Of a stretch of 32,000 bases of DNA, positions 1,974-31,306 are shown piece after piece. The stretch is from the NCBI GenBank assembly GCA_017934955.1, contig JAGBIO010000011.1, positions 116,377 through 148,376 of the forward strand, written 5' to 3'. Under the pieces are notes generated by a model. That model did no database searches, had not been told where the DNA came from, and worked only from the letters and a program-made list of their open reading frames with translations. Source of the stretch: Clostridia bacterium (GTDB lineage: Bacteria; Bacillota; Clostridia; TANB77; RGIG9151). A program made the position numbers and the translations under genes. Numbering within the stretch: the first letter of the stretch is position 1; each line of letters starts with the position of its first letter.

Positions 1974-2008
1974 CTTATTAACGGAATAATTTGTTAATAA
2001 GTCTTTTA
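1974..2008 (+). terminator. weak AT-rich hairpin after the TA module
   Basis: CTTATTAAC (1974-1982) / GTTAATAAG (1993-2001), 10-nt loop, followed by TCTTTTAATT. Confidence 0.3.
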
Positions 2009-2091
2009 ATTATGATAAATTTGTTGAAATATAGAAAGCATTAAAATAATATGATAAAATATTAGCAAAATATGAAAATCGGAGGTATTTT

Positions 2092-3540
2092 ATGGATGCC
2101 AATATTAAGAGTGCGATAGATAGAATTTGGGAGTATTTTTGGACGGGTGGAGTTACCAATCCGCTTACTGTTATTGAGCAGATTACATATCTTTTATTTA
2201 TAAAGGGCTTAGATGATGTTGATATTAGTAGAGAGAAAAATGAGGTTTTGTTGGGAATAAAGAAAGCTAAGATTTTTGATGAGAAGCATCAAAATTTGAG
2301 ATGGAGCATTTTTAAGGATTTTGAAGCAGAGAGAATGTATAAAGTTGTTCAAGAAGAAGTTTTTCCATTTATAAAGAGTATGGGAATGGGAAAAGATTCG
2401 AATTATACAAAGTACATGGAAGATGCTATTTTTCTTATTCCGACTCCTATTATGTTACAAAGAGTAGTAACTGCGATAGATAAATTAGAAATGAAAGATA
2501 GAGATACTAAGGGCGATGTGTATGAGTATTTACTTTCTAAATTATCAACAGCTGGCACGAATGGACAATTTAGAACACCGCGACACATTATAAAGATGAT
2601 GGTAGAACTTATGAAGCCTACTGCACAGGATGTTATCGTCGATCCGGCGAGTGGTTCTGCGGGTTTTTTGGTACAAGCAGGGGAATATTTAAGAGAAAAT
2701 CATGCGGATTTATTTAATGTGGCTAATTTAAAAGAGCATTTTAATAATACGATGTTTTATGGTTTTGATATGGATAGAACGATGCTTAGAATTGGTGCGA
2801 TGAACCTTATGCAACATGGAATTGAGAATCCGAATATAAGTTATAAGGATTCATTATCGGAAGATAATGAGGACAATAGTAAATATACCTTAGTTTTAGC
2901 TAATCCACCGTTTAAAGGCTCGATTGATGATGAAAGAACATCGAAGGATTTACTTGCCGTAACGAAAACAAAGAAAACAGAGTTGCTGTTTTTGGCATTG
3001 TTTTTGAGAATATTAAAAGTAGGTGGAAGATGTGCATCCATTGTACCGGATGGAGTTTTATTTGGTAGTTCGAACGCACATAAGTCTATTCGAAGAGAGA
3101 TTATTGAAAATAATAAGTTAGAGGCGATTATATCAATGCCAAGTGGTGTGTTTAAGCCTTATGCAGGGGTTTCGACAGCGATTATGATTTTTACAAAAAC
3201 AGGTGTTGGAGCAACGGATAAAGTTTGGTTTTATGACATGACTGCGGATGGTTTTAGTTTAGATGATCAAAGACAAGAAGTTAAGGAGAATGATATACCG
3301 GATATTATTGCGAGATTTAATAATTTAGAGGGAGAGGAAGATAGAAAGAGAACAGATAAGTCCTTTTTTGTGAGTAAAGAGGAGATTGGTGAAAATGATT
3401 ATGATTTGTCGATTAATAAGTATAAAGAGGTAGTTGTGGAGCAAAAACATTATGATGAGCCTAAGGTGATTTTTAACAGGATTAAAGCTATGGAGGTTGA
3501 ACTTCAGCAGAAACTTGAGGAGTTGGAGGGGATGCTGTAG
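2092..3540 (+). CDS. hsdM: Type I restriction-modification system methyltransferase subunit M
   Basis: 482 aa. AdoMet motif DPASGSAGFL and catalytic LANPPFKG (NPPF) of N6-adenine MTases. The stop overlaps the hsdS start. Confidence 0.95.
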   Translation: MDANIKSAIDRIWEYFWTGGVTNPLTVIEQITYLLFIKGLDDVDISREKNEVLLGIKKAKIFDEKHQNLRWSIFKDFEAERMYKVVQEEVFPFIKSMGMGKDSNYTKYMEDAIFLIPTPIMLQRVVTAIDKLEMKDRDTKGDVYEYLLSKLSTAGTNGQFRTPRHIIKMMVELMKPTAQDVIVDPASGSAGFLVQAGEYLRENHADLFNVANLKEHFNNTMFYGFDMDRTMLRIGAMNLMQHGIENPNISYKDSLSEDNEDNSKYTLVLANPPFKGSIDDERTSKDLLAVTKTKKTELLFLALFLRILKVGGRCASIVPDGVLFGSSNAHKSIRREIIENNKLEAIISMPSGVFKPYAGVSTAIMIFTKTGVGATDKVWFYDMTADGFSLDDQRQEVKENDIPDIIARFNNLEGEEDRKRTDKSFFVSKEEIGENDYDLSINKYKEVVVEQKHYDEPKVIFNRIKAMEVELQQKLEELEGML

Positions 3541-4640
3541 TGATAGTAAAATTAAAAGATGTGACATTATTTTCTAAAGGTAAACAAATTAATGGTAGTG
3601 AATTAAGCGAAGAAGGTAAATTTCCGTATTTAAATGGTGGAATAAAGCCATCTGGAAATTGGAATATGGCAAATACTAAGGCGAATACTGTTACAATTAG
3701 TGAAGGCGGAAATTCTTGTGGATATGTAAATTTTATGAAAGAGCCTTTTTGGTGTGGCGCTCATTGCTATTATTTTTACTCAACAAAAGGTAATTCTAAG
3801 TATTTATATTATGCTTTAAAAAGTCAACAGAATAAAATAATGAAGCTTCGTTCAGGGGCTTGCATGCCTAATATAAAGAAAAATGATTTAGCTAATTTTG
3901 AGTTTGAATATGACTTTAATGAAATTAATCAAAACTTAGTGGTTAATAAATTAGATAAAATTCAAGAAATTATTGATATTCGTATGGAGCAAATAAGGCA
4001 GTTGGAGGAGCTTGTTAAAGCTCGATTTGTCGAACTGTTTGGAGATACCATTCTTAATCCGTATGGTTGGAATGTTGTTACTGTTGGCGATATTGTTACT
4101 GATGTTAGATATGGAACAAGCAAACCCGCTGTCGAAGGTGGAAAATATCCTTATCTGAGAATGAACAACCTTACTTATGACGGGCATTTAGATTTATCTG
4201 ATATGAAGTATATCGACATTTCTGATAATGAAATCGAGAAATGTATTGTCCGCAAAGGTGATGTTCTTTTCAACAGAACCAATAGTATTGAATTGGTTGG
4301 TAAAACCTGTGTGTTTGACTTGGATGATGATATGGTTATAGCAGGATATATCATCCGTGTAAGGTTGAATGAAAAACTCTTGCCTATTGTGCTATCAAGT
4401 TATTTGAACTTGCCTTCGCTCAAAGAACAGCTTAGAAGTATGGCAAAAGGTGCTGTAAATCAAGCCAATATCAATGCGCAGGAATTACAGAGCATAAAAA
4501 TTTATTTGCCACCTATTGAATTACAAAACCAGTTCGCCACCTTTGTCGAACAGACCGACAAATCAAAATTGGAGTATAAGAAAAGTTTAGTAGAAATGCA
4601 AAATTTAATGGAGAGTTTAATGAATCAATATTTTAGCTAA
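3540..4640 (+). CDS. hsdS: Type I restriction-modification system specificity subunit S
   Basis: 366 aa. GTG start shares one base (3540) with the hsdM TAG stop (3538-3540). Two variable target-recognition halves separated by conserved helical spacers (EQIRQLEELVKARFVELFGD; LPPIELQNQFATFVEQ...). Confidence 0.9.
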   Translation: MIVKLKDVTLFSKGKQINGSELSEEGKFPYLNGGIKPSGNWNMANTKANTVTISEGGNSCGYVNFMKEPFWCGAHCYYFYSTKGNSKYLYYALKSQQNKIMKLRSGACMPNIKKNDLANFEFEYDFNEINQNLVVNKLDKIQEIIDIRMEQIRQLEELVKARFVELFGDTILNPYGWNVVTVGDIVTDVRYGTSKPAVEGGKYPYLRMNNLTYDGHLDLSDMKYIDISDNEIEKCIVRKGDVLFNRTNSIELVGKTCVFDLDDDMVIAGYIIRVRLNEKLLPIVLSSYLNLPSLKEQLRSMAKGAVNQANINAQELQSIKIYLPPIELQNQFATFVEQTDKSKLEYKKSLVEMQNLMESLMNQYFS

Positions 4641-4717
4641 ACGAGATTAATAAAAAAGATAGCTTCAATATGCATTAGATGAAAAATGAATGCTGAAAAA
4701 ATGAGGAGAGAATTGAT

Positions 4718-7700
4718 ATGTCAAATTTTGATTTTCTATTAAAAAACAAAATCTTTGAAAGTTTTGCATCATCGTGTGTTGATGCTGAAAAGGCATTAGA
4801 GATAAATAGTGTAACTTCTGCAATTCTTGCACGTCGTGCGGTGGAACTTGCGGTTAAGTGGATGTATGCGAATGATGAATATTTAAAACTTCCATATCAA
4901 GACAATGTTTCTGCTCTTATTCATGATATTACTTTTAAGAACATAATAGATGAGACAATTTTTGAACAAATCAAGTACATTATAAAATTAGGAAATTTTG
5001 CAGTACATAGCAATAAGAAATTAACCAGAGAAGAAGCGATTTTGTCATTAAATTACTTGTTTAACTTTACACAATGGATTATGTATTGTTATACATACGA
5101 AGAGTATATAGAGACAGAATTCAATGAAGGCTTATTGCCAAGTGGAAAAGAAGTTTTGGTTCCTGTGGCGGAGAAGGAAAATTTATATGAGGAGCTAAGT
5201 AAAAAGGACAAAAAGCTTGAGGAAATAATTCGTGAGAACGAAGAGTTAAGAAAGCAATTAACAGAAAAGCGGAAGAAAAAGGTAGTAAAAGATGAGTTTA
5301 AAATTAAAGATATTTCGGAATATGATACGAGAAAGAAGTATATTGATTTAGATTTGAAACTTGCTGGTTGGGATTTTAGTGAGAATATGACTGCAGAATT
5401 ACCGTTAAGTGGTATGCCGAATAATGCAGATAGTGGACGAGCAGATTATGTTTTGTTTGGGAAAAATGGATTACCTCTTGCTGTTGTTGAGGCGAAAAGG
5501 ACAAGCGTAGATTCAAAAGTTGGACAACATCAGGCGAAGCTGTATGCGGATTGTTTAGAGAAGGAGTATCATCAGAGACCGATTATTTTCTATACAAATG
5601 GTTATGAAATCCATATGTGGGATGATATGAATTATGCACCACGAAAAGTATGGGGGTTTTATACGCAAGATGAATTGCAATTGTTGATTAATCGAAGGAC
5701 TTCAAGAGAGAGTTTGAAACATATCGTAATTAGTGATGCAATTACAAACCGTGGTTATCAACATGAGGCAATTAGAAGTGTTTGCGAGGCTTTTGATGAG
5801 GGTCATAGAAAAGCTTTACTTGTGATGGCAACCGGTACCGGTAAGACAAGAACTGCAATATCGATTGTGGATGTATTGACGACTAAAAATTGGGCGAAGA
5901 ATGTGTTATTTTTGGCAGATAGAAAGACTTTGGTAAAGCAAGCTAAGAATAATTTTGTGAAGTTATTGCCGAATCAGTCCTGTTGTAATTTATTGAATGC
6001 AAATGATAAAGAAAATCCGGAAGAGTGTAGAATTGTTTTTTCGACTTACCAGACAATGATGAATGAAATTGATAATAGAAAGGGAAAGAATGGAAATAAG
6101 CTTTTTACGCCGGGACATTTTGATTTAATTATTATAGATGAGGCTCATAGAAGTATTTATAAGAAGTATCAGGCTATTTTTGAGTATTTTGATGGCTTAT
6201 TGGTAGGGCTTACGGCAACTCCGCGAAATGATGTAGATAAAAATACATATAAGTTTTTTGAAATTGAGAATGATGTTCCTACGTTTGCCTATGAGCTTGA
6301 TGAAGCGGTTAAAGAGGGATATTTGGTAGATTACCACTGTATAAGAACCGGAACGGAGTTTATGAGTCGTGGAATACGATATGCGGATTTATCGGAAGAA
6401 GAGAAAGAAGAATATGAAACCTTATTTGAAGAGTATAATACGCCGGATGAAATAGAAGCATCTGCTATGAATTCTTGGATATTTAATCATAATACAATAA
6501 TGCAGTTGTTAGAAATTCTTATGGAGAAAGGGCTTAAAGTAGAAGGTGGAGATAAACTCGGAAAGACAATAATTTTTGCAAAAAATCATAGACATGCGGA
6601 AAAAATAGTGGATGTATTTAATGAGCTATATCCTAATAAAAATGAGGGTGGTCATTTTATAAAGTTGATAGACAATCAAGTAAAGTATAATGATAACTTG
6701 ATTGATGATTTTACATTTAAGGACTTGCCTGTGATTGCGGTGTCGGTAGATATGTTAGATACAGGTGTGGACGTGCCCGAAGTATTGAATTTAGTGTTTT
6801 TTAAACCGGTGAAATCAAAAATAAAGTTTTGGCAGATGATTGGACGTGGGACTAGACTTTGCAAGGATTTATTTGGTCCGGGAATGGATAAAAAAGAGTT
6901 TTACATATTTGATTATTGTGGAAATTTTGATTTCTTTGCTGCAAATCCTAAGGGGACAGAAACTGCAAATGATGCAGGGCTTACAGAGAAGATATATAAT
7001 GCTAAATTGGATTTAATTGTAGAGTTTCAAAATATGAAGTATCAGGATTCTGATGAGTATGTTAATTATAGAAATAGCCTTATAGAAGATTTCCAAAGAG
7101 AAATACAACGCTTGAATCGAGATAGTTTTATTGTAAAGGCGAAGACAATCTATGTTGAGAAATATAGTAAAGCTGATAGTTTTAATTATATCTCAATTTT
7201 AGATGCGAAGGAAATTAAAGATCATATTACGCCTTTATTTTATGGTAATGATGAGGAAGAGTGTGCGAAACGATTTGATTCGTTGCTTTATGGTCTTCAA
7301 GTGTCAAAAATTAATAAAAAAGAAGATAATAGACGAATTTCAGGAATTATTAGCTTAATGGAGGAATTGCAGAAATTAGGAACGATTCCGCAAGTTTTTG
7401 CTAAGAAAGAATTGATTTTGAAGGCATCAACGTCTGCTTTTTGGAAGACATCTGGTTTCTTTGAAATTGAGAAGGCAAGAGCAGAGTTGAGAGAGTTAAT
7501 TCAATATATTGAGCTTTATAAAAGAATTTCGCTATATACTAATTTTACAGATATAGTGATTCCTGTTCAAGAAGGAAAAGTGGATGTATCGTATGGTAGT
7601 GATTTTACGAATTATCGCAAGAAGGTAAATCAGTATTTGGCAGGAAATTTGGAGAGTTTGATTATTTATAAAATAAGACATAATCAGAGATTAACAGAAG

Positions 7701-8071
7701 CTGAAAAGAAGGATTTAGAAAGAATAATGTTTGAGGAGCTTGGTACCAATAAAGAGTATGTTGAGGCTTTTGGTAATAAGCATGTTATGGAAGTGGTAAG
7801 GAATATGGTTGGAATTGCGCCGGAGACTGCAAATGAGATTTTTTCTAAGTACATTAATGATAATAAGCTTAATTTGAAGCAGATTAAGTTTGTGAAGCTT
7901 TTGATTGATTATGTTATAAAGAATGGAACCGTTGAAATGGAAGTGTTGACGGAAGATCCGTTTAGGTCTTTAGGGGAAGTTTATGAGGTTTTTGAGAATA
8001 ATATTGGTGTTATTAAGGAGTTGAGGAGAGATATCGAGCATCTTAATGATAATGCGAAGCTAGTGGGATAG
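4718..8071 (+). CDS. hsdR: Type I restriction endonuclease subunit R with an N-terminal DUF4145-like extension
   Basis: 1117 aa. PD-(D/E)xK core GRADYVLF...AVVEAKR. SF2 helicase motifs ATGTGKT, IIDEAHRS (DEAH) and QMIGRGTR. Confidence 0.95.
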   Translation: MSNFDFLLKNKIFESFASSCVDAEKALEINSVTSAILARRAVELAVKWMYANDEYLKLPYQDNVSALIHDITFKNIIDETIFEQIKYIIKLGNFAVHSNKKLTREEAILSLNYLFNFTQWIMYCYTYEEYIETEFNEGLLPSGKEVLVPVAEKENLYEELSKKDKKLEEIIRENEELRKQLTEKRKKKVVKDEFKIKDISEYDTRKKYIDLDLKLAGWDFSENMTAELPLSGMPNNADSGRADYVLFGKNGLPLAVVEAKRTSVDSKVGQHQAKLYADCLEKEYHQRPIIFYTNGYEIHMWDDMNYAPRKVWGFYTQDELQLLINRRTSRESLKHIVISDAITNRGYQHEAIRSVCEAFDEGHRKALLVMATGTGKTRTAISIVDVLTTKNWAKNVLFLADRKTLVKQAKNNFVKLLPNQSCCNLLNANDKENPEECRIVFSTYQTMMNEIDNRKGKNGNKLFTPGHFDLIIIDEAHRSIYKKYQAIFEYFDGLLVGLTATPRNDVDKNTYKFFEIENDVPTFAYELDEAVKEGYLVDYHCIRTGTEFMSRGIRYADLSEEEKEEYETLFEEYNTPDEIEASAMNSWIFNHNTIMQLLEILMEKGLKVEGGDKLGKTIIFAKNHRHAEKIVDVFNELYPNKNEGGHFIKLIDNQVKYNDNLIDDFTFKDLPVIAVSVDMLDTGVDVPEVLNLVFFKPVKSKIKFWQMIGRGTRLCKDLFGPGMDKKEFYIFDYCGNFDFFAANPKGTETANDAGLTEKIYNAKLDLIVEFQNMKYQDSDEYVNYRNSLIEDFQREIQRLNRDSFIVKAKTIYVEKYSKADSFNYISILDAKEIKDHITPLFYGNDEEECAKRFDSLLYGLQVSKINKKEDNRRISGIISLMEELQKLGTIPQVFAKKELILKASTSAFWKTSGFFEIEKARAELRELIQYIELYKRISLYTNFTDIVIPVQEGKVDVSYGSDFTNYRKKVNQYLAGNLESLIIYKIRHNQRLTEAEKKDLERIMFEELGTNKEYVEAFGNKHVMEVVRNMVGIAPETANEIFSKYINDNKLNLKQIKFVKLLIDYVIKNGTVEMEVLTEDPFRSLGEVYEVFENNIGVIKELRRDIEHLNDNAKLVG

Positions 8072-12555: not shown

Positions 12556-12793
12556 GTGGAACTTTTGAAAAAAGTGGACAGCATAAATGCTGTTCGTACG
12601 AAATAAGATGAATACTAAAAAACTTAAGAGGAGCAAAAGTTTTGAAAAAAAGTGGACAGCATAAATGCTGTCCGTACGAAATAAGATGAATACTAAAAAA
12701 CTTAAGAGGAGTGGAAATTTAGAAAAATGGACAGCATAAATGCTGTCCGTACGAAATAAGATGAATAGCAAAAAACTTAAGAGGAGCGAGAAT
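12556..12793 (+). repeat. Tandem array (partial + 78 + 75 + ~65 bp units), each unit a REP hairpin GGACAGCATAAATGCTGTCC plus a copy of the DUF368 leader/5' codons
   Basis: Hairpins start at 12576, 12654 and 12729. Inter-hairpin sequence CGTACGAAATAAGATGAATACTAAAAAACTTAAGAGGAG is conserved between units. Confidence 0.9.
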
Positions 12794-13606
12794 ATGAAAG
12801 AGAAAAAATGGAGCGTGTTTTTAAAAGGGCTGATTGTTGGCGGGACGATGACGGTGCCGGGAGTAAGCGGGGGTTCCATGGCGATGATTTTGGGAATCTA
12901 TGAGCGATTAATTTCTTCAATCAGTTCCTTTCGGAAACAGAAAAAAGAAAGTATCTTGTTTTTGAGTATATTTTTGGCAGGAAGTTTTTTAGGAATGTTT
13001 TTATTTGCGAATTGGCTATTGCGATTAATGGAACGCTATCCGATACCGGTTAAATATTTCTTTGTAGGCGCGGTTGCGGGAGGAATTCCGATGATATTTC
13101 GTGCTGCGAAAGTAAAAAAGTTAACAGGGAAAGCAATCCTCTATTTAATTCTTGGGATTGCTGTCGTATGGCTTATTTCTTTGCTTCCGAACGGACTGTT
13201 TTCGGCACAAAACAATACCGGTCTATACGGAAGTTTATTACAAATTATCGGAGGTTTTATTGTTGCAATCGCCTTGGTACTTCCGGGAATCAGCGTTTCT
13301 CAAATGCTTTTGATGCTTGGATTATATGAGGAAGTAATCAGTGCGATTGGAAGTTTAAATGTTTTAGGAATTCTTCCGTTGGGATTTGGGATAATCATCG
13401 GAATTTTTCTTACGACAAAGGTATTGGAAGGGACAATGCAACGCTATCCACAGGCGACTTACTTGATTGTTTTGGGATTTATCTTAGGGTCGATTCCGGA
13501 ACTGTTTCCCGGCTTTTCGGCAAGTTTAGAACAAGTAATCGCGATTGTAACCGCAATTTCCGGATTTTTTGCGGTATATAGTATTTCACGAAAAGAGAAC
13601 GAATAA
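12794..13606 (+). CDS. DUF368 family polytopic membrane protein (family recently linked to undecaprenyl-phosphate recycling)
   Basis: ATG 12794 follows GAGGAG by 5 nt. N-terminal TMTVPGVSGGSMAMILGIYERLI and a second PGISVSQMLLMLG repeat, with multiple TM segments. Confidence 0.85.
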   Translation: MKEKKWSVFLKGLIVGGTMTVPGVSGGSMAMILGIYERLISSISSFRKQKKESILFLSIFLAGSFLGMFLFANWLLRLMERYPIPVKYFFVGAVAGGIPMIFRAAKVKKLTGKAILYLILGIAVVWLISLLPNGLFSAQNNTGLYGSLLQIIGGFIVAIALVLPGISVSQMLLMLGLYEEVISAIGSLNVLGILPLGFGIIIGIFLTTKVLEGTMQRYPQATYLIVLGFILGSIPELFPGFSASLEQVIAIVTAISGFFAVYSISRKENE

Positions 13607-13739
13607 AGAAAAGAGGAAAAAAAGACTTTCTTGCTGTCAATAACAAAGAAAAATTTCATCCTTAAAATATAAAAAGTTAACAAACGAAAATGACATCCCT
13701 ATTATTATCTGAGAGCTAATTCTCAAGCCAGTAATAAGT

Positions 13740-13980
13740 CTATCCTGCAGAGTATTCCAATTTCTTTTCAAGTTCAGCAGAAGGAGCTTTAATAGGTTTA
13801 CGCCCCTTGTTTTTATGAATAGTACCATCAACACTATTTAATAAAACACTCCTTTTGAGTCGTTGAATTTAGTGTTTTAAGAAATCTAACAGCTTGAGGA
13901 AAAGTGTACTTACCATTAATAACGCCATCAATAATACTAAATTTTCTTACTTCTTTTTCACTCATAAAATATCTTTCCAT
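13740..13980 (-). pseudogene. N-terminal remnant of an ISNCY (IS1202-group) transposase, frameshifted and truncated
   Basis: Minus strand reads MERYFMSEKEVRKFSIIDGVINGKYTFPQAVRFLK..., then in another frame QRLKRSVLLNSVDGTIHKNKGRKPIKAPSAELEKKLEY. This matches the HTH N-terminus (..STRQ..RLK....IHKNRGRKP) of ISNCY transposases. No catalytic domain follows. Confidence 0.55.
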
Positions 13981-13984
13981 AATA

Positions 13985-14156
13985 GTTACTACCATAAAAA
14001 CACCCGTCTATTCAGACTTAAATTTATAGAGAAGGCGTAAACACTGTAGGGACAGCATTTATGCTGTCCACAGAAAATGCGGAATGCAGGACAGCATAAA
14101 TGCTGTCCCTACAAGGCTTTGGCGAAAATAATAAGTTGTTAAGTCAGAATAGTAAC
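13985..14156 (+). mobile_element. MITE-like element copy a with REP doublet core (14045-14113)
   Basis: Ends GTTACT...ATTCAGACTT / AAGTCAGAATAGTAAC, with a 19-nt insertion in the left TIR. Flanks CCATAATA / CTATAATA (7/8). Confidence 0.75.
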
Positions 14157-14226: not shown

Positions 14227-14256
14227 TTGACATAAATAATATACTTGGTGTATAAT
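14227..14256 (+). promoter_or_regulatory. promoter of the HD-domain gene
   Basis: TTGACA (14227-14232), 18-nt spacer, TATAAT (14251-14256). Leaves a ~170-nt leader containing the hairpin 14286-14324. Confidence 0.6.
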
Positions 14257-14431
14257 GGTGGTGGTTGGTAAATAAGGATAGAGTAGGGCAATTGCTGAAC
14301 TCGGAGGTGGAAAAGGCAATGCCCGAATGCCAAAACAGACGGTATTAGAAGCAGGAAGGAATGAAAATTAAAAAAATTCATAAACTTTCTGCCGGAACTC
14401 AACGACTACGCGTAATGCGGGAGGGACTGCA

Positions 14432-15748
14432 ATGAACGCTATCCTCATGAACATCGTTTACTTTATCCTGGCGGAAGCCTTTTACCGCTTGAAACTTTCG
14501 GAGTCCTGGCGTGGCCTTCAAAAGTCTCAAGAAGGTTTCTCCAAGGAAGACAAAGAAGCGTTGAATGCGCTTGTCGCGATGGTACTTGTGCCGATTTTCC
14601 AGAGCGAATACGGACTCATCTGCAGCATTGAAAATATGGCAAAGTATGTCCTGTACCGTATTTTCAAGAAGGCATTCCTTTGGGATTCTAAGCCGCAGAA
14701 TAAGCGGTTCCTGGAGCAGAAAATCGACTTCGACGCGGAAGCGAAAAAGTACGTGAAGGAATGTATTCGTAAGATGCTGAATGAGTATCGCGAAGAGGAA
14801 AACTACAAAGCCGCATGTGCTCTCGCGACAGATGTCCTTTCGCAGACCGACGCGAAGTATCGTGCGTCCTTTAGCTATTCGGTTTTGGCGTCTTCTCCTG
14901 CGACAGAAGAGGATATCGAGCGATTGGCTGATTGGATTTGTGGCGATCTTGCGAACTGCGATCCGAACGTAGAATACATCTACGAGGCAGCGAAGGACTT
15001 GACAACTGTCATCGAGTACGAAGAAGTTCGTGATAATCTTCGTGCGGATGCGGTAGATGAGATCAAGAAGAGCGTCTACAGCAAGTTGGACAAGTTCCAT
15101 GATCATCCCATTATTTACGAGATTGCACTCGGAACCGGTAAATACGGGAAATTGAACCAGCTCCTTCACACGATTTCGTGGGCTCGCTATACCTTTAGGT
15201 GGCAAGGATACAAGATGACCATTCGCTGCTCTATCCTGACACACATGCTGGAAACTGGTCTTCTTGGCTATGTAGCTGCCTATGAAGGACTGCAGAAAGC
15301 AACGAATGAACAGGAGTATGCGGAGAGGAAAGCAATGATGGAAAAAGCTTTTAAAGTGGGGCTTTTCCACGATGTTGCTGAGATCTGGACCGACGATATT
15401 CCTTCGCCGGCGAAGGATGGAATGGGAATTCGTCCCTTGGCAGAGGAACAGGAACTTCACGCGATTGAAGAAAAATTCTACCCCAATTTGCCTGAGTATG
15501 TGGTAGAGTTTTTCCGGAATGGCGTAATGCTGGAGGATACGAAGGATCTGCGTGAAAAGAGCTTCTACAAGGCGGCGGATTATTTCTCCGCAGACCTGGA
15601 GGTCTGGTGGAATATCCGTGCCGGCGCTCGAGATAAGCGTCTCCTTCGTATCTTGCAGAAGTCTCTGAAGTGCGAGCGGACGCCCGGTCAGTTGACCAGC
15701 ATCCAGTATTTCCTGCTGGAGATGAAAGGCGTCAAGTTCTACCTGTAA
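14432..15748 (+). CDS. 438-aa protein: unknown ~230-aa N-terminal domain + YfbR-like HD-domain 5'-deoxynucleotidase fold
   Basis: GGGAGGGA RBS. The C-terminal half aligns by eye with E. coli YfbR: RWQGYKMTIRCSILTH vs RWPLMRNVRTENVSEH; GLFHDVAEIWTDDIPSPAKD vs MYHDASEVLTGDLPTPVKY; KSFYKAADYFSA vs KSLVKQADALCA. Confidence 0.8.
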   Translation: MNAILMNIVYFILAEAFYRLKLSESWRGLQKSQEGFSKEDKEALNALVAMVLVPIFQSEYGLICSIENMAKYVLYRIFKKAFLWDSKPQNKRFLEQKIDFDAEAKKYVKECIRKMLNEYREEENYKAACALATDVLSQTDAKYRASFSYSVLASSPATEEDIERLADWICGDLANCDPNVEYIYEAAKDLTTVIEYEEVRDNLRADAVDEIKKSVYSKLDKFHDHPIIYEIALGTGKYGKLNQLLHTISWARYTFRWQGYKMTIRCSILTHMLETGLLGYVAAYEGLQKATNEQEYAERKAMMEKAFKVGLFHDVAEIWTDDIPSPAKDGMGIRPLAEEQELHAIEEKFYPNLPEYVVEFFRNGVMLEDTKDLREKSFYKAADYFSADLEVWWNIRAGARDKRLLRILQKSLKCERTPGQLTSIQYFLLEMKGVKFYL

Positions 15749-15757
15749 CTTCTTTTA

Positions 15758-15800
15758 CCCCGCGAAGATTAAACAGCCCTTCGCGGGGCTTTTCTTTTTG
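15758..15800 (+). terminator. rho-independent terminator of the HD-domain gene
   Basis: CCCCGCGAAG (15758-15767) / CTTCGCGGGG (15779-15788), then CTTTTCTTTTT. Confidence 0.85.
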
Positions 15801-15803
15801 GGG

Positions 15804-15956
15804 GTTACTATTTAGACTTAAAATTGTAAAAATGGCACAAACACTGTAGGGACAGCATTTATGCTGTCCACAGAAAAGGCAGAAAGCAGGACAGCATGAA
15901 TGCTGTCCGTACAATGATTGCATCAATATTATAGGAAATATAGTCTGAACAGTAAC
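15804..15956 (+). mobile_element. MITE-like element copy b with REP doublet core (15845-15913)
   Basis: GTTACTATTTAGACTTAAA ... TATAGTCTGAACAGTAAC. Core TGTAGGGACAGCATTTATGCTGTCC-ACAGAAAAGGCAGAAAGCA-GGACAGCATGAATGCTGTCCGTACA. Confidence 0.8.
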
Positions 15957-15985: not shown

Positions 15986-16014
15986 TTGACGACGATGAAA
16001 AAAAAGGCTATACT
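15986..16014 (+). promoter_or_regulatory. promoter of tRNA-Met
   Basis: TTGACG, 17-nt spacer, TATACT, ending 15 nt before the tRNA 5' end. Confidence 0.65.
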
Positions 16015-16029
16015 ATTCAAGTAACTTAT

Positions 16030-16106
16030 GGCGGCGTAGCTCAGTTGGCTAGAGCATACGGTTCATACCCGTAGTGTCGTTGGTTCGATCCCGACCGCCG
16101 CTACCA
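16030..16106 (+). tRNA. tRNA-Met (anticodon CAT), elongator type, CCA encoded
   Basis: Cloverleaf readable: acceptor GGCGGCG/CGCCGCT, D arm GCTC-AGTTGGCTA-GAGC, anticodon arm TACGG-TTCATAC-CCGTA, T arm GTTGG-TTCGATC-CCGAC. From memory, close to the B. subtilis elongator tRNA-Met. Confidence 0.93.
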
Positions 16107-24581: not shown

Positions 24582-24875
24582 TTGCTTAATGAATTCGAGC
24601 CTAAAAGGCGAAGAATGAATTTAGCAAATAAGCCCGCAGCAATTCGCAGAATTGCTGTGTACCGCTAAAAAGTAAGTAAAATAATTGCGGTTCTATGAAA
24701 GCGAAGCTTGAATAGAACATTGGTAAAGTTGCTTAATGAATTCGAGCCTAAAAGGCGAAGAATGAATTTAGCAAATAAGCCCGCAGCAATTCGCAAAATT
24801 GCTGTGTACCGCTAAAAAAGTAAAATATAACTCCGTTCTGTGAAAGCGAAGCTTGAACAGAACAATAGTAGTTTT
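24582..24875 (+). repeat. 2 x 147-bp tandem repeat of a hairpin-rich element in the rpsG-fusA spacer
   Basis: TTGCTTAATGAATTCGAGCC... begins at 24582 and again at 24729. The first ~88 nt of each unit differ at one base; the 3' parts diverge. Confidence 0.9.
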
Positions 24876-29000: not shown

Positions 29001-29759
29001 ATGACTGAGTTGACATTGCGGCAGCAGGAGAAGCGAAGGGTGAAACAATTAGCAGAATTAGCGATCGAAGAGTACTATAATCATCCGGAGAAAAAAGGAA
29101 TTTTGCTTTGTGAAGGAACTTACGACAGCATTGATTTCGCAGTGTATTCGTTAGTATATCCGGAATTAGTGGTTGTTCCTTGTGAAGGATGTACGGTGGT
29201 TACTAAAATGGTTTCGAAAGTACTTTGGCGTTTAAAAGGAAAGACGGAGGCAAATGTTTTCGCAATTATCGATCGAGATGATTTAACAAAGAAACGGATT
29301 CGTGCATTGGAAAAGCAAGGAATTTTTTGTACCAGATTACCGTTTATCGAGAATATTATCTGTTGTCCTGAGGTATTGAAGATTCTTTGTAATGTTTATG
29401 GAAAGAATTATATTGCGGTGAGAAATCGCATCAGTTCAGGACTGTTGGAAAGGTTGCAACACCGTATTAAGCAGTATCTACCGATTAATTTGGATTGTTC
29501 GGAATGGGAGCGTTCTGCTTCTGTTACGATTGTTTATCGTGATTCTAATGGAAATGTGAAAAAGGAAAAAACAGTTACAAGAGATAATGTCTTTTATGTA
29601 TTTCGTTCTAAAGAAACAGCAAGTCAGGCGGCATGCGCGTTGGGATTGACAGATCGAGACAAATATTATGAAGCAGTGAAAGAACAAATTAAAGGAGCGT
29701 ATGGAGGGGCGTTGATTTTAGCGATGAAAAAATATCTTCCCGTACTTTCTTTAGAATAA
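29001..29759 (+). CDS. DUF4435-like protein (OLD-family/AriB-type Toprim fold), no ATPase partner
   Basis: AGGAGGAGG RBS. Ordered motifs GILLCEGTYDSIDF, VVPCEGC..V, FAIIDRDD and LPFIENIICCPEVL fit the DUF4435 pattern (xVEGxxD ... GGk..V ... IvDrD ... lE.yeIENy) as I remember it. Confidence 0.65.
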   Translation: MTELTLRQQEKRRVKQLAELAIEEYYNHPEKKGILLCEGTYDSIDFAVYSLVYPELVVVPCEGCTVVTKMVSKVLWRLKGKTEANVFAIIDRDDLTKKRIRALEKQGIFCTRLPFIENIICCPEVLKILCNVYGKNYIAVRNRISSGLLERLQHRIKQYLPINLDCSEWERSASVTIVYRDSNGNVKKEKTVTRDNVFYVFRSKETASQAACALGLTDRDKYYEAVKEQIKGAYGGALILAMKKYLPVLSLE

Positions 29760-30527: not shown

Positions 30528-30595
30528 GGACACAATTCATTGTGTCCTTTAAATAGCAGAAAACCGAAATGGACAGCATAAATGCTGTCCGTACG
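30523..30595 (+). repeat. shell-less REP doublet (B-type left, A-type right)
   Basis: TGTAGGGACACAATTCATTGTGTCC-TTTAAATAGCAGAAAACCGAAAT-GGACAGCATAAATGCTGTCCGTACG. No GTTAC...AGACT ends around it. Confidence 0.85.
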
Positions 30596-30613
30596 ATTGG
30601 AGGGAGGAGAAAT

Positions 30614-31306
30614 ATGGATCAGTTTTCACGGACAAGATTGTTGATTGGAGAAGAGGGAATAAATAAATTAAAAAGAGCGAAAGTGGCCATTTTCGGCGTG
30701 GGAGGCGTTGGTTCTTATACGGCGGAAGGGTTGGCACGTGCCGGTGTGGGGCACTTTGTTTTGGTAGATAAGGACGATATTTGCGTGACAAATTTGAATC
30801 GACAAATTCATGCATTACATAGTACGATTGGAAAGCCGAAAGTGGAAGTGATGAAGGAGCGGATTTCGGAAATTAATCCGGAGGCAGAGGTAGAGGCTTT
30901 GCAGGCGTTTTATTTGCCGGAAAATGCGGAGCAATTTTTACAGGAAAAGTACGATTATATCGTGGATGCGGTGGATAATGTAACGGCGAAAATCGATTTG
31001 GCGGTGAGGGCGGAACAGGCAGGAATTCCGTTGATTTCAGCGATGGGAGCGGCAAATAAGTTGAATCCGTTTTTATTTGAAGTGGCAGATATTTATAAAA
31101 CGTCGGTTTGTCCGCTTGCGAAAGTAGTTCGCAGGGAGTTGCGAAATCGAGGTGTAAAATCTTTAAAAGTGGTGTATTCTAAAGAAGACCCGATAAAACC
31201 CAAGGAGACGGAGGAGGGACAGCGAGTTGTGGGGAGTATTTCTTTTGTCCCGTCAGTGATGGGTTTGATGATTGCGAGCGAAGTGGTGAAGGATTTATTA
31301 TATTGA
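30614..31306 (+). CDS. tcdA: tRNA threonylcarbamoyladenosine dehydratase (ThiF/MoeB-fold, TcdA/CsdL-like)
   Basis: ATG 30614 follows GGAGGGAGGAG. VAIFGVGGVGSYTAEGLARAGVGHFVLVDKDDICVTNLNRQ. The ORF-track start at 30569 lies in the REP. Confidence 0.8.
   Translation: MDQFSRTRLLIGEEGINKLKRAKVAIFGVGGVGSYTAEGLARAGVGHFVLVDKDDICVTNLNRQIHALHSTIGKPKVEVMKERISEINPEAEVEALQAFYLPENAEQFLQEKYDYIVDAVDNVTAKIDLAVRAEQAGIPLISAMGAANKLNPFLFEVADIYKTSVCPLAKVVRRELRNRGVKSLKVVYSKEDPIKPKETEEGQRVVGSISFVPSVMGLMIASEVVKDLLY

Follow-up and report, generated by a model that had tools for sequence, protein, structure and literature searches.

What is a gene with foreign-looking codons doing between transposon-like repeats in the genome of an AT-rich member of the Clostridia? 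We analyzed 32,000 nucleotides of such a genome (GenBank assembly GCA_017934955.1, contig JAGBIO010000011.1, positions 116,377 to 148,376 of the forward strand; "the window"), and in particular the open reading frame (ORF) at 14432-15748 (+ strand), which is listed with 438 amino acids and which we call the HD gene. A preliminary description of the window reported that this ORF is more GC-rich than its surroundings, that it forms a self-contained unit with its own promoter, leader, and terminator, and that repeats resembling miniature inverted-repeat transposable elements (MITEs) flank it. It proposed that the unit was a horizontally acquired cassette and a candidate for defence. The observations were right, but the inference from the codon usage and the flanking MITEs was wrong. 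Overall, we think that this is probably a vertically inherited, fast-evolving gene for a nucleotidase of 2'-deoxynucleoside 5'-monophosphates (dNMPs), under the control of its leader RNA.

The two halves of the HD protein

The C-terminal part of the protein (residues 241-438, encoded together with the stop codon by 15152-15748) appears to be a catalytic YfbR-like HD domain, as the preliminary description had recognized. Residues 246-428 match the YfbR-like family of Pfam (PF12917; 56.8 bits, with a cutoff of 25.9; E = 3e-15), and the family profile, from an alignment of 42 homologues (alignment A1), matches E. coli YfbR (2paq) at 5.8e-10. In YfbR, H33, H68, D69, and D137 bind the metal; R18, W19, and D77 confer specificity for deoxyribose; and E72 is catalytic (PMC8177086). 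The metal ligands align with H271, H313, D314, and D383 of the window protein, the specificity residues with R256, W257, and D322, and the catalytic glutamate with E317. All eight of the YfbR residues that we compared (seven essential residues plus E72) are kept, and their columns are invariant across the 42 homologues. Because every metal-binding and deoxyribose-specifying residue of YfbR is retained, we predict that the protein hydrolyzes dNMPs: the most likely activity is their conversion to deoxynucleosides and phosphate. As for the enzyme class, the full protein is likely a YfbR-type HD nucleotidase. The NCBIfam equivalog model for YfbR (NF003009) gives a score of 30.6 bits, as compared to its cutoff of 122, and by sequence the C-terminal domain seems to be a YfbR-type enzyme yet not a YfbR orthologue.

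The AlphaFold2 model of the full-length protein has a predicted local distance difference test (pLDDT) score of 92. The C-terminal domain shares the all-helical HD fold of YfbR (PDB 2paq, 2par, and 2pau) and its yeast relative YGK1, and like YfbR it keeps the H..HD..D ligands, the catalytic Glu, and the Arg-Trp pair and Asp for deoxyribonucleotide specificity. Unlike YfbR, which is a homodimer of subunits of about 200 amino acids, the window protein has 438 amino acids in two tandem HD-fold domains, of which the N-terminal copy is apparently dead as a catalyst. The gene also differs from that of YfbR in having its own, probably structured leader and host-foreign codons and in being confined to a few AT-rich Clostridia. 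The best structural matches to both halves are OxsA (5tk7, from the oxetanocin pathway), Lin2634 (3mzo), and the phage dATPase DatZ (6zpa), which show that the small HD fold can handle mono-, di-, or triphosphates. All three have a single domain, whereas the window protein has two and shows no evidence of triphosphatase chemistry.

The first 240 residues (14432-15151), which were originally described as an unknown domain and a possible sensor, have no match in Pfam or PADLOC, and a profile of the N-domain sequences has no match in the PDB. Structure prediction and Foldseek identify a degenerate YfbR-like HD fold instead. The AlphaFold2 model of this domain alone (pLDDT 87) has OxsA (5tk7), YfbR (2pau), and Lin2634 as its top Foldseek matches (probability 0.99-1.0, E = 0.03-0.6), with a target-normalized template modelling (TM) score of 0.70 and a root-mean-square deviation of 4.0 Å to YfbR 2pau. 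The H..HD..D metal ligands are missing (both the His and the His-Asp are gone). Fourteen other residues of the N-domain are invariant in the family: K21, W26, G28, F36, K38, K41, E42, R76, K80, W84, D85, K87, P88, and E195. Short motifs, as read from alignment A1, also echo between the N-terminal and C-terminal halves: ESWRG and FRWQG, E42 and E274, and WD.KP..K and W.DD.P...K. From the fold matches and these echoes, we conclude that the protein is probably an ancient internal duplication, in which a dead copy of the HD domain is fused to a live one. The N-terminal copy may be a pseudo-partner that takes the place of the second subunit of the YfbR dimer, or it may be a nucleotide-binding regulatory module. 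A regulatory nucleotide could bind it via the invariant cluster of lysines and arginines.

The family is small. Our N-domain profile matched 54 proteins or clusters among 1.84 billion cluster representatives, and a YfbR domain follows the N-domain in all nine of the real full-length members that we checked. (We rejected P0070, with 1503 amino acids and 20 matched stretches, as a low-complexity artefact.) Just two of 185,579 species-representative genomes carry the gene; both are uncultured metagenome-assembled genomes, and one of them is labelled as Clostridia. A scan of metagenome contigs yielded four loci. Beyond the loci from these two scans, gene neighborhoods were taken mainly from look-ups of exact proteins. 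There was no relative in 2.9 million viral contigs. A search of BFVD found only single-domain phage HD proteins, with no viral two-domain relative, and PHROGs gave weak HD-domain matches only. Our literature searches found no description of the two-domain architecture or of the leader. If it is indeed pseudo-dimeric, then this very rare YfbR-type architecture would be a tractable case for the control of nucleotide-pool enzymes by pseudoenzyme domains.

Two other homologous loci have unusual arrangements (we refer to these loci by numbers such as L027). L027 contains tandem two-domain paralogues (433-1701 and 1983-3377; 422 and 464 amino acids) directly upstream of parA-parB, each with its own TTGACATAA promoter and with a GC content that is just slightly raised. 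In L010 (5677-6880), the homologue is apparently interrupted: the ORF stops after 130 amino acids, while the tblastn match runs to residue 437. Members of 129-133 amino acids are in the same 90% cluster as this homologue, which could reflect a pseudogene or an assembly error.

Codon composition and descent

The HD gene has a GC content of 0.484 and a GC content at third codon positions (GC3) of 0.590, as compared to a GC3 of 0.21-0.46 for the 23 other window genes that we measured. GC3 is raised uniformly along both halves of the gene. The absence of TTA, CTA, and TCA, which had been reported for the first 343 codons, holds for all 438. These codons make up 4.66% of the background, and by our arithmetic the chance of seeing none is (1-0.0466)^438, or about 8e-10. 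As the preliminary description had stated, the codon usage is foreign to the host. It is not that of highly expressed host genes either, for which we used rpsL, rpsG, fusA, tuf, and hup as the reference set: the HD gene and this set differ in TTA (0 versus 0.53), AGA (0 versus 0.72), CAA (0.21 versus 0.80), and CTG (0.31 versus 0.00), which rules out a match to the high-expression set. The codon usage of the HD gene has a correlation of 0.37 with that of ordinary host genes and of 0.33 with that of the highly expressed genes. We also checked for avoidance of UA or AA across codon junctions in the HD gene, as a sign of nuclease avoidance, and nothing stood out.

The preliminary description read this anomaly as a signature of horizontal transfer. 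However, it is shared by relatives: in all 12 of the genes from subfamilies 1 and 2, the GC content is 0.42-0.48 and GC3 is 0.42-0.59, while the flanks are at 0.29-0.38. The frequency of A at third codon positions (A3) drops from 0.33-0.46 to 0.09-0.27 in these genes, and the frequency of T (T3) hardly shifts. The most avoided codons are CTA and CCA (each at 0.03 of background), ATA (0.04), TTA (0.05), and TCA (0.09). The anomaly is slight or absent in genes of subfamily 3 and in the L027 paralogues (in L022, 0.339 versus 0.342). Across approximately 180 kb of fetched loci, ORFs with GC3 of at least 0.44 are almost solely HD genes and their shadow ORFs.

The only non-HD genes with GC3 above 0.44 in these 180 kb are an orphan ORF in L016 and a ThiF-family gene in the window (30569-31306, GC3 0.46). 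The orphan ORF (L016 10629-11357, + strand; it is also found at the end of L011) encodes 242 amino acids with no Pfam match and has a GC content of 0.50 and a GC3 of 0.55. Preceded by a TTGACA promoter and flanked by aspartokinase and rsmI, it belongs to a genome with about 31% GC.

The position of the gene is also shared. In the window, the HD gene is followed by the tRNA-Met promoter (15986-16014, + strand) and the tRNA-Met gene (16030-16106, + strand), a conserved downstream neighbor that anchors positional orthology. In L015, L021, and L024, the homologue is followed by a similar terminator and then by the same tRNA-Met promoter. (The tRNA-Met gene is cut off by the contig end in L015 and L021; in L024, dus lies beyond.) L015 and L021 also have spoIIIAH upstream of the gene in common. 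The flanking DNA of these loci is 83-86% identical to the window and the Dus protein is 88% identical. The HD proteins at the four loci are less similar: 81% identity between L021 and L024, 64% between L015 and L021, and about 56% between the window and each of the others. In a second lineage, L012 and L014 share the order rsmI, methyltransferase, ogg, HD gene, rpsL.

The two MITE-like repeats that flank the unit are 149 nucleotides each. Copy a (14008-14156) contains two GGACAGCATnnATGCTGTCC palindromes (repeat families D1-D4), and copy b (15808-15956) lies between the terminator and the tRNA-Met promoter. They are direct repeats, spaced 1800 nucleotides apart, and the palindrome occurs in about 7 intergenic regions of the window. 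So, the repeats that could bound a cassette are present, but neither copy is found at the HD locus of L021 or L024. Since the gene occupies its usual site at both of these loci although the repeats are missing, the MITE copies are secondary, later insertions outside the ancestral unit. Similarly, the shared site in L015, L021, and L024, of which L021 and L024 lack MITEs, argues against recent delivery as a cassette. We consider vertical descent, rather than recent import, to be likely. The preliminary description had held that syntenic homologues with matching codon usage would speak against import; the synteny was found, but the codons do not match those of the hosts.

MITEs of another family, with terminal inverted repeats of 46-61 nucleotides, are found on both sides of the gene in L026 (297-466 and 2082-2177) and directly after the stop codon in L014 (10717-10914). 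The intergenic regions that flank the HD gene attract MITEs in several lineages. In the window, two small ORFs (13637-13995) have no match in Pfam, so their earlier label of "ISNCY remnant" was not confirmed.

The comparison of the window with L024 also shows that the atypical composition has persisted. For dus, the synonymous divergence (dS) is 1.28 and the nonsynonymous divergence (dN) is 0.06; for the HD gene, dN is 0.39 and dS is saturated. The dS of dus shows that synonymous sites were replaced after these positional orthologues diverged. GC3 is nevertheless 0.50-0.59 on both sides of the split. An import that has not yet ameliorated would not account for a high GC3 on both sides at dS of 1 or more, so these comparisons indicate that GC-rich, A3-poor codon usage is a maintained trait of the family. 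Selection or some biased process must keep GC3 high. Since GC3 was kept although synonymous sites are saturated, a force beyond mutation bias would be acting on the whole coding sequence. Orthologues with GC3 of about 0.5-0.6 in genomes with about 30-36% GC are a counter-example to inferring recent transfer from an unusual GC content or unusual codons.

The protein has changed quickly. HD proteins are 54-56% identical where the neighboring proteins are 73-89% identical, and dN/dS between close pairs is about 0.11-0.13. From these rates, the HD protein appears to be under purifying selection and yet to evolve several times faster than its neighbors.

The leader RNA

Each part of the transcription unit that had been described from the window was found again. 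The sigma-70-type promoter TTGACA-18-TATAAT (14227-14256, + strand) matches the consensus at 12 of 12 positions. Its TTGACATAA -35 region recurs at most homologous loci, and at every locus a strong TTGACA(TAA) promoter precedes a leader of 50-170 nucleotides. The 5' leader in the window is about 170 nucleotides long (14262-14431, + strand, with the start placed from the -10 box), has a GC content of 0.44, and includes the ribosome-binding site GGAGGG (14420-14425, + strand). The unit closes with an intrinsic terminator (15758-15799, + strand), which consists of CCCCGCGAAG..CTTCGCGGGG and a T-run, with stem arms at 15758-15767 and 15779-15788. A similar terminator lies 3' of the gene in L021 and L024.

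The preliminary description suggested that the leader might be a cis-regulatory RNA but recognized no known riboswitch in it, and comparative data agree with both statements. We aligned 14 leaders from subfamilies 1-3 (alignment A5). No gaps are needed to align them between an A-R-R-G box and a C-T-Y-R-G box that lies 19 nucleotides downstream, and together the two boxes make up the base of a hairpin, P1 (14281-14302, + strand; basal pairs 14281-14284/14299-14302 and inner pairs 14287-14289/14294-14296). Across the 7 pairs of P1 in the 14 leaders, 91.8% of the cells are paired, as compared to 20-50% in slid controls. Four of the 7 pairs have compensatory changes (for instance, G-C to A-U, or U-A to C-G, A-U, or G-U), and the covariation score of 0.64 (0.29 in shuffles) was reached by 0 of 500 shuffles. 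Loop positions A18 and T20 and the G after are invariant in all 14 leaders. P1 is followed by a single-stranded tail, GGAGGTGGAAAA (14303-14314, + strand), with the family consensus GG-N2-5-GTR-(C)AAA.

The hairpin that the preliminary description had pointed out is a longer one (14286-14324, + strand; -15 kcal/mol, z = -2.64); it is an alternative to P1 and has its left arm in common with it. In subfamily 2 (L006, L012, L014, and L016-18), the long hairpin is a strong stem and is directly followed by a U-run, about 25 nucleotides before the ribosome-binding site; the subfamily 2 leaders that we folded (L006, L012, L014, and L017) gave -24 to -33 kcal/mol (z = -4.5 to -7.8). The counterpart in L026 is weak (-12.3 kcal/mol, z = +0.16), but a U-run comes after it as well. 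The arrangement in subfamily 2 looks like a terminator/antiterminator switch in which P1 competes for the left arm. We put the chance that the leader acts as a regulatory switch at about even. The window, L015, L021, and L024 have the long hairpin without a U-run, so control in these may act on translation or on stability, or it may have been lost.

The core of the leader is short (about 35-45 nucleotides) and consists of a hairpin and a conserved purine- and A-rich tail, which is reminiscent of preQ1-I-type riboswitches. As in terminator/antiterminator attenuators such as the PyrR leader, the core can re-pair in several lineages to form an intrinsic terminator that lies after the promoter and before the ribosome-binding site. 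Unlike preQ1-I and PyrR leaders, it has no match in Rfam, and the window version lacks a U-run after the long hairpin. At gathering thresholds, Rfam 15 identified only the tRNA-Met in the window, and scans by E-value (up to E = 10 on isolated leaders; eight loci) gave no leader family and only chance-level matches. We also built a covariance model from the 14 leaders (R1). It scores 47.7 bits at P1 of the window, and a scan of the window and 18 other loci found no further genuine copy. (Matches of 23.5 bits at L016 8795-8845 and L011 2077-2127 are false: the one in L016 is inside a dnaI-like coding sequence and the one in L011 has an identical score.) From its conservation, the leader element is a good candidate for a structured RNA, and as a compact candidate cis-regulatory RNA that is absent from Rfam it is open to direct testing.

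In subfamily 1, the tail also reads as a perfect Shine-Dalgarno-like GGAGGTG. STAB-SD sequences are 5' mRNA stabilizers of Bacillus (cryIIIA type), and as in these, the subfamily 1 GGAGGTG is far upstream of the real ribosome-binding site. However, the tails of subfamilies 2 and 3 read GGTTGTA and GGTATCCGTA. Because GGAGG is not conserved there, a STAB-SD is not the common function of the element. A CsrA site and a leader peptide were rejected on similar grounds, as neither the GGA/GGAGG motif nor small upstream ORFs are conserved across the subfamilies.

A known riboswitch does lie on the other side of the gene at two loci. In L005, a cyclic di-GMP riboswitch (c-di-GMP-I, RF01051) is at 1439-1523 (76 bits, E = 1.2e-13), in a gap of 737 nucleotides after the terminator of the HD gene. 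L003 also has this element downstream of the HD gene. It presumably controls a downstream transcript.

Weighing the explanations

We propose that the HD gene is a chromosomal single-gene transcription unit that would be inherited vertically in a narrow set of spore-forming Clostridia, which are AT-rich and for the most part uncultured. Its product would be a pseudo-dimeric YfbR-type 5'-deoxynucleotidase that dephosphorylates dNMPs. Transcription from the strong consensus promoter would be constitutive, and the leader RNA would toggle between P1 and the longer hairpin or terminator and would limit output, with a ligand or a protein as the signal. The role of the enzyme would be housekeeping or house-cleaning of the deoxynucleotide pool in these Clostridia, and the flanking MITEs would have arrived after the gene. 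Frequent neighbors of the gene (ogg, dnaD/dnaI, topA, dprA, and NUDIX genes) fit with DNA-precursor hygiene, but this is only suggestive.

Several points weigh against parts of this explanation. The low score against the equivalog model implies that the substrate could differ from that of YfbR, and the substrate assignment for all members of the family derives from sequence and fold. The evidence for the duplication consists of structural matches whose Foldseek E-values are weak and of brief motif echoes, and a profile-profile comparison of the N-terminal and C-terminal halves with hhalign was not significant (E = 0.057) and was in the wrong register. Vertical descent is drawn from 4+2 syntenic loci, it is possible that alleles were replaced by recombination across the conserved flanks, and the family is rare and patchy, with MITEs on both sides of the gene in the window and in L026. 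As to the leader, the lack of a U-run in the window means that the attenuation mechanism is not simply transferable, and the 14 sequences behind the covariation represent about 9 lineages and three clades, and hence few independent events.

The recombination that we just mentioned could be more pervasive. The gene could be a recombination hotspot whose alleles are swapped via the conserved flanks (tRNA-Met, rpsL, topA, or parAB), so that GC-biased conversion or GC-richer donors keep GC3 high. This would explain only the composition and is compatible with a nucleotidase function. The gene does always adjoin highly conserved sequences, the protein's identity of 54-56% is far below that of its neighbors, and GC3 is raised uniformly over both halves. 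But GC-biased conversion does not predict a strand-asymmetric shift, with A3 falling from 0.33-0.46 to 0.09-0.27 and T3 barely changing; we saw no homologue in a GC-rich genomic background; and the identities of the HD proteins (81%, 64%, and about 56%) agree with the shared synteny. We consider a hotspot to be unlikely.

It is also a long shot that the leader is a new small class of riboswitch or protein-controlled attenuator, dedicated to this nucleotidase, that senses a deoxynucleotide-related signal and that the composition of the coding sequence is actively selected. The coding sequence avoids exactly the codons that the host uses the most (TTA, AGA, ATA, CAA, and AAA). Selection, if it acts, might preserve the translation or stability of this mRNA at times when the AU-rich mRNAs or the U34 tRNAs of the host are impaired. 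Such stresses could include toxin or phage nucleases, spore dormancy, or outgrowth. Alternatively, the codon bias might throttle a potentially toxic enzyme. The gene would then be vertically inherited and "codon-insulated."

The explanation offered originally, in an updated form, is that the unit is a recently acquired anti-phage or nucleotide-depletion module, delivered by a MITE or insertion sequence, whose N-domain senses infection and whose HD domain drains the nucleotide pools. Known defence enzymes that deplete deoxynucleoside triphosphates (dNTPs), such as dGTPase- or SAMHD1-like dNTPases and dCTP deaminase, share with the HD protein the HD superfamily or the targeting of nucleotide pools. 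However, dGTPase- and SAMHD1-like dNTPases are HD proteins of far greater size that have allosteric sites and another active-site layout (Foldseek gives E. coli dGTPase a probability of at most 0.05 with the window protein), and the active site here matches the monophosphatase YfbR and not a dNTP triphosphohydrolase. Phages commonly encode HD nucleotidases and dATPases with a single domain, but we found no relative in the viral contigs, and PADLOC-DB v2 gave 0 families for the HD protein at E up to 1. The great rarity and patchiness of the family (the two of 185,579 genomes) and the fast evolution of the protein (54-56% identity, versus 73-89% for neighbors) speak for such a module, yet its dN/dS of about 0.12 indicates purifying and not diversifying selection. 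Host-foreign codons would fit a recent import, but the GC anomaly persists although dS is above 1. And while direct MITE copies flank the unit, a different MITE family flanks the gene in L026, and an rve transposase adjoins the closest homologue in L020, the gene keeps its position across four related genomes, and two of these lack MITEs.

The neighborhoods do not point to defence either. The window does contain a type I restriction-modification system, an MqsA/SocA-like gene, and a DUF4435 gene. But across about 10 distinct neighborhoods (a small sample), there was no consistent enrichment of defence islands or mobile elements. They are mainly housekeeping regions, with rpsL, topA, ogg, dnaD/dnaI, parAB, murA-ftsZ, and spoIIIA: in L006, rpsL comes directly after the HD gene; topA is its divergent neighbor in L003, L004, and L010, as is murA-ftsQAZ in L022; and in L016 and L017, the HD gene has a Tex-like gene on one side and dnaD-dnaI on the other. 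Overall, a recently imported defence module seems quite improbable.

Because the HD gene lacks TTA, CTA, and TCA, its codon-aligned antisense frame is open, as the preliminary description noted (14399-15460, - strand, 353 amino acids, with no stop in frame over the entire gene); we judge this ORF to be a by-product of the avoidance of these codons and not a gene. That an antisense gene instead forbids TTA, CTA, and TCA and so imposes the codon bias is very hard to credit: there are zero in-phase stops over at least 400 codons in the window, L014, L015, L016, and L018 and just 1-6 in the remaining members of subfamilies 1 and 2 (each of the four further alternative frames has 9-55), and the three codons are at 0.05, 0.03, and 0.09 of background, but ATA (0.04) and CCA (0.03), whose complements are not stops, are equally depleted, as are A-ending codons in general; the ORF does not accompany the protein throughout the family, given the 8-18 in-phase stops in subfamily 3 and in the L027 paralogues; a Pfam search with its translation found nothing; the open frame in the window has no start codon in its first 96 codons; and the transcript would collide head-on with the consensus promoter.

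Of the defence-related genes in the window, the type I restriction-modification system (hsdM, hsdS, and hsdR; 2092-8071) is complete and is 6 kb upstream of the HD gene. Upstream of that system is a gene for an MqsA-HTH/SocA-Panacea fusion protein (785-1801). The DUF4435 (OLD/AriB-like) gene (29001-29759) stands alone after tuf and has MITE copies in its flanks.

The window contains other repeats as well. Near the left end (156-359), there is an inverted repeat of 51 nucleotides whose arms are 98% complementary and are spaced 102 nucleotides apart. At 12565-12804, there are three tandem copies about 78 nucleotides apart, each with a GGACAGCATAAATGCTGTCC palindrome and a AAGAGGAG box, and they overlap the annotated start of a VCA0040-like gene (12740-13606). 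Finally, the gap between rpsG and fusA in the str operon (24582-24870) contains two near-identical tandem units with a period of about 147 nucleotides (90 nucleotides at 99% identity and 36 nucleotides at 89% identity).

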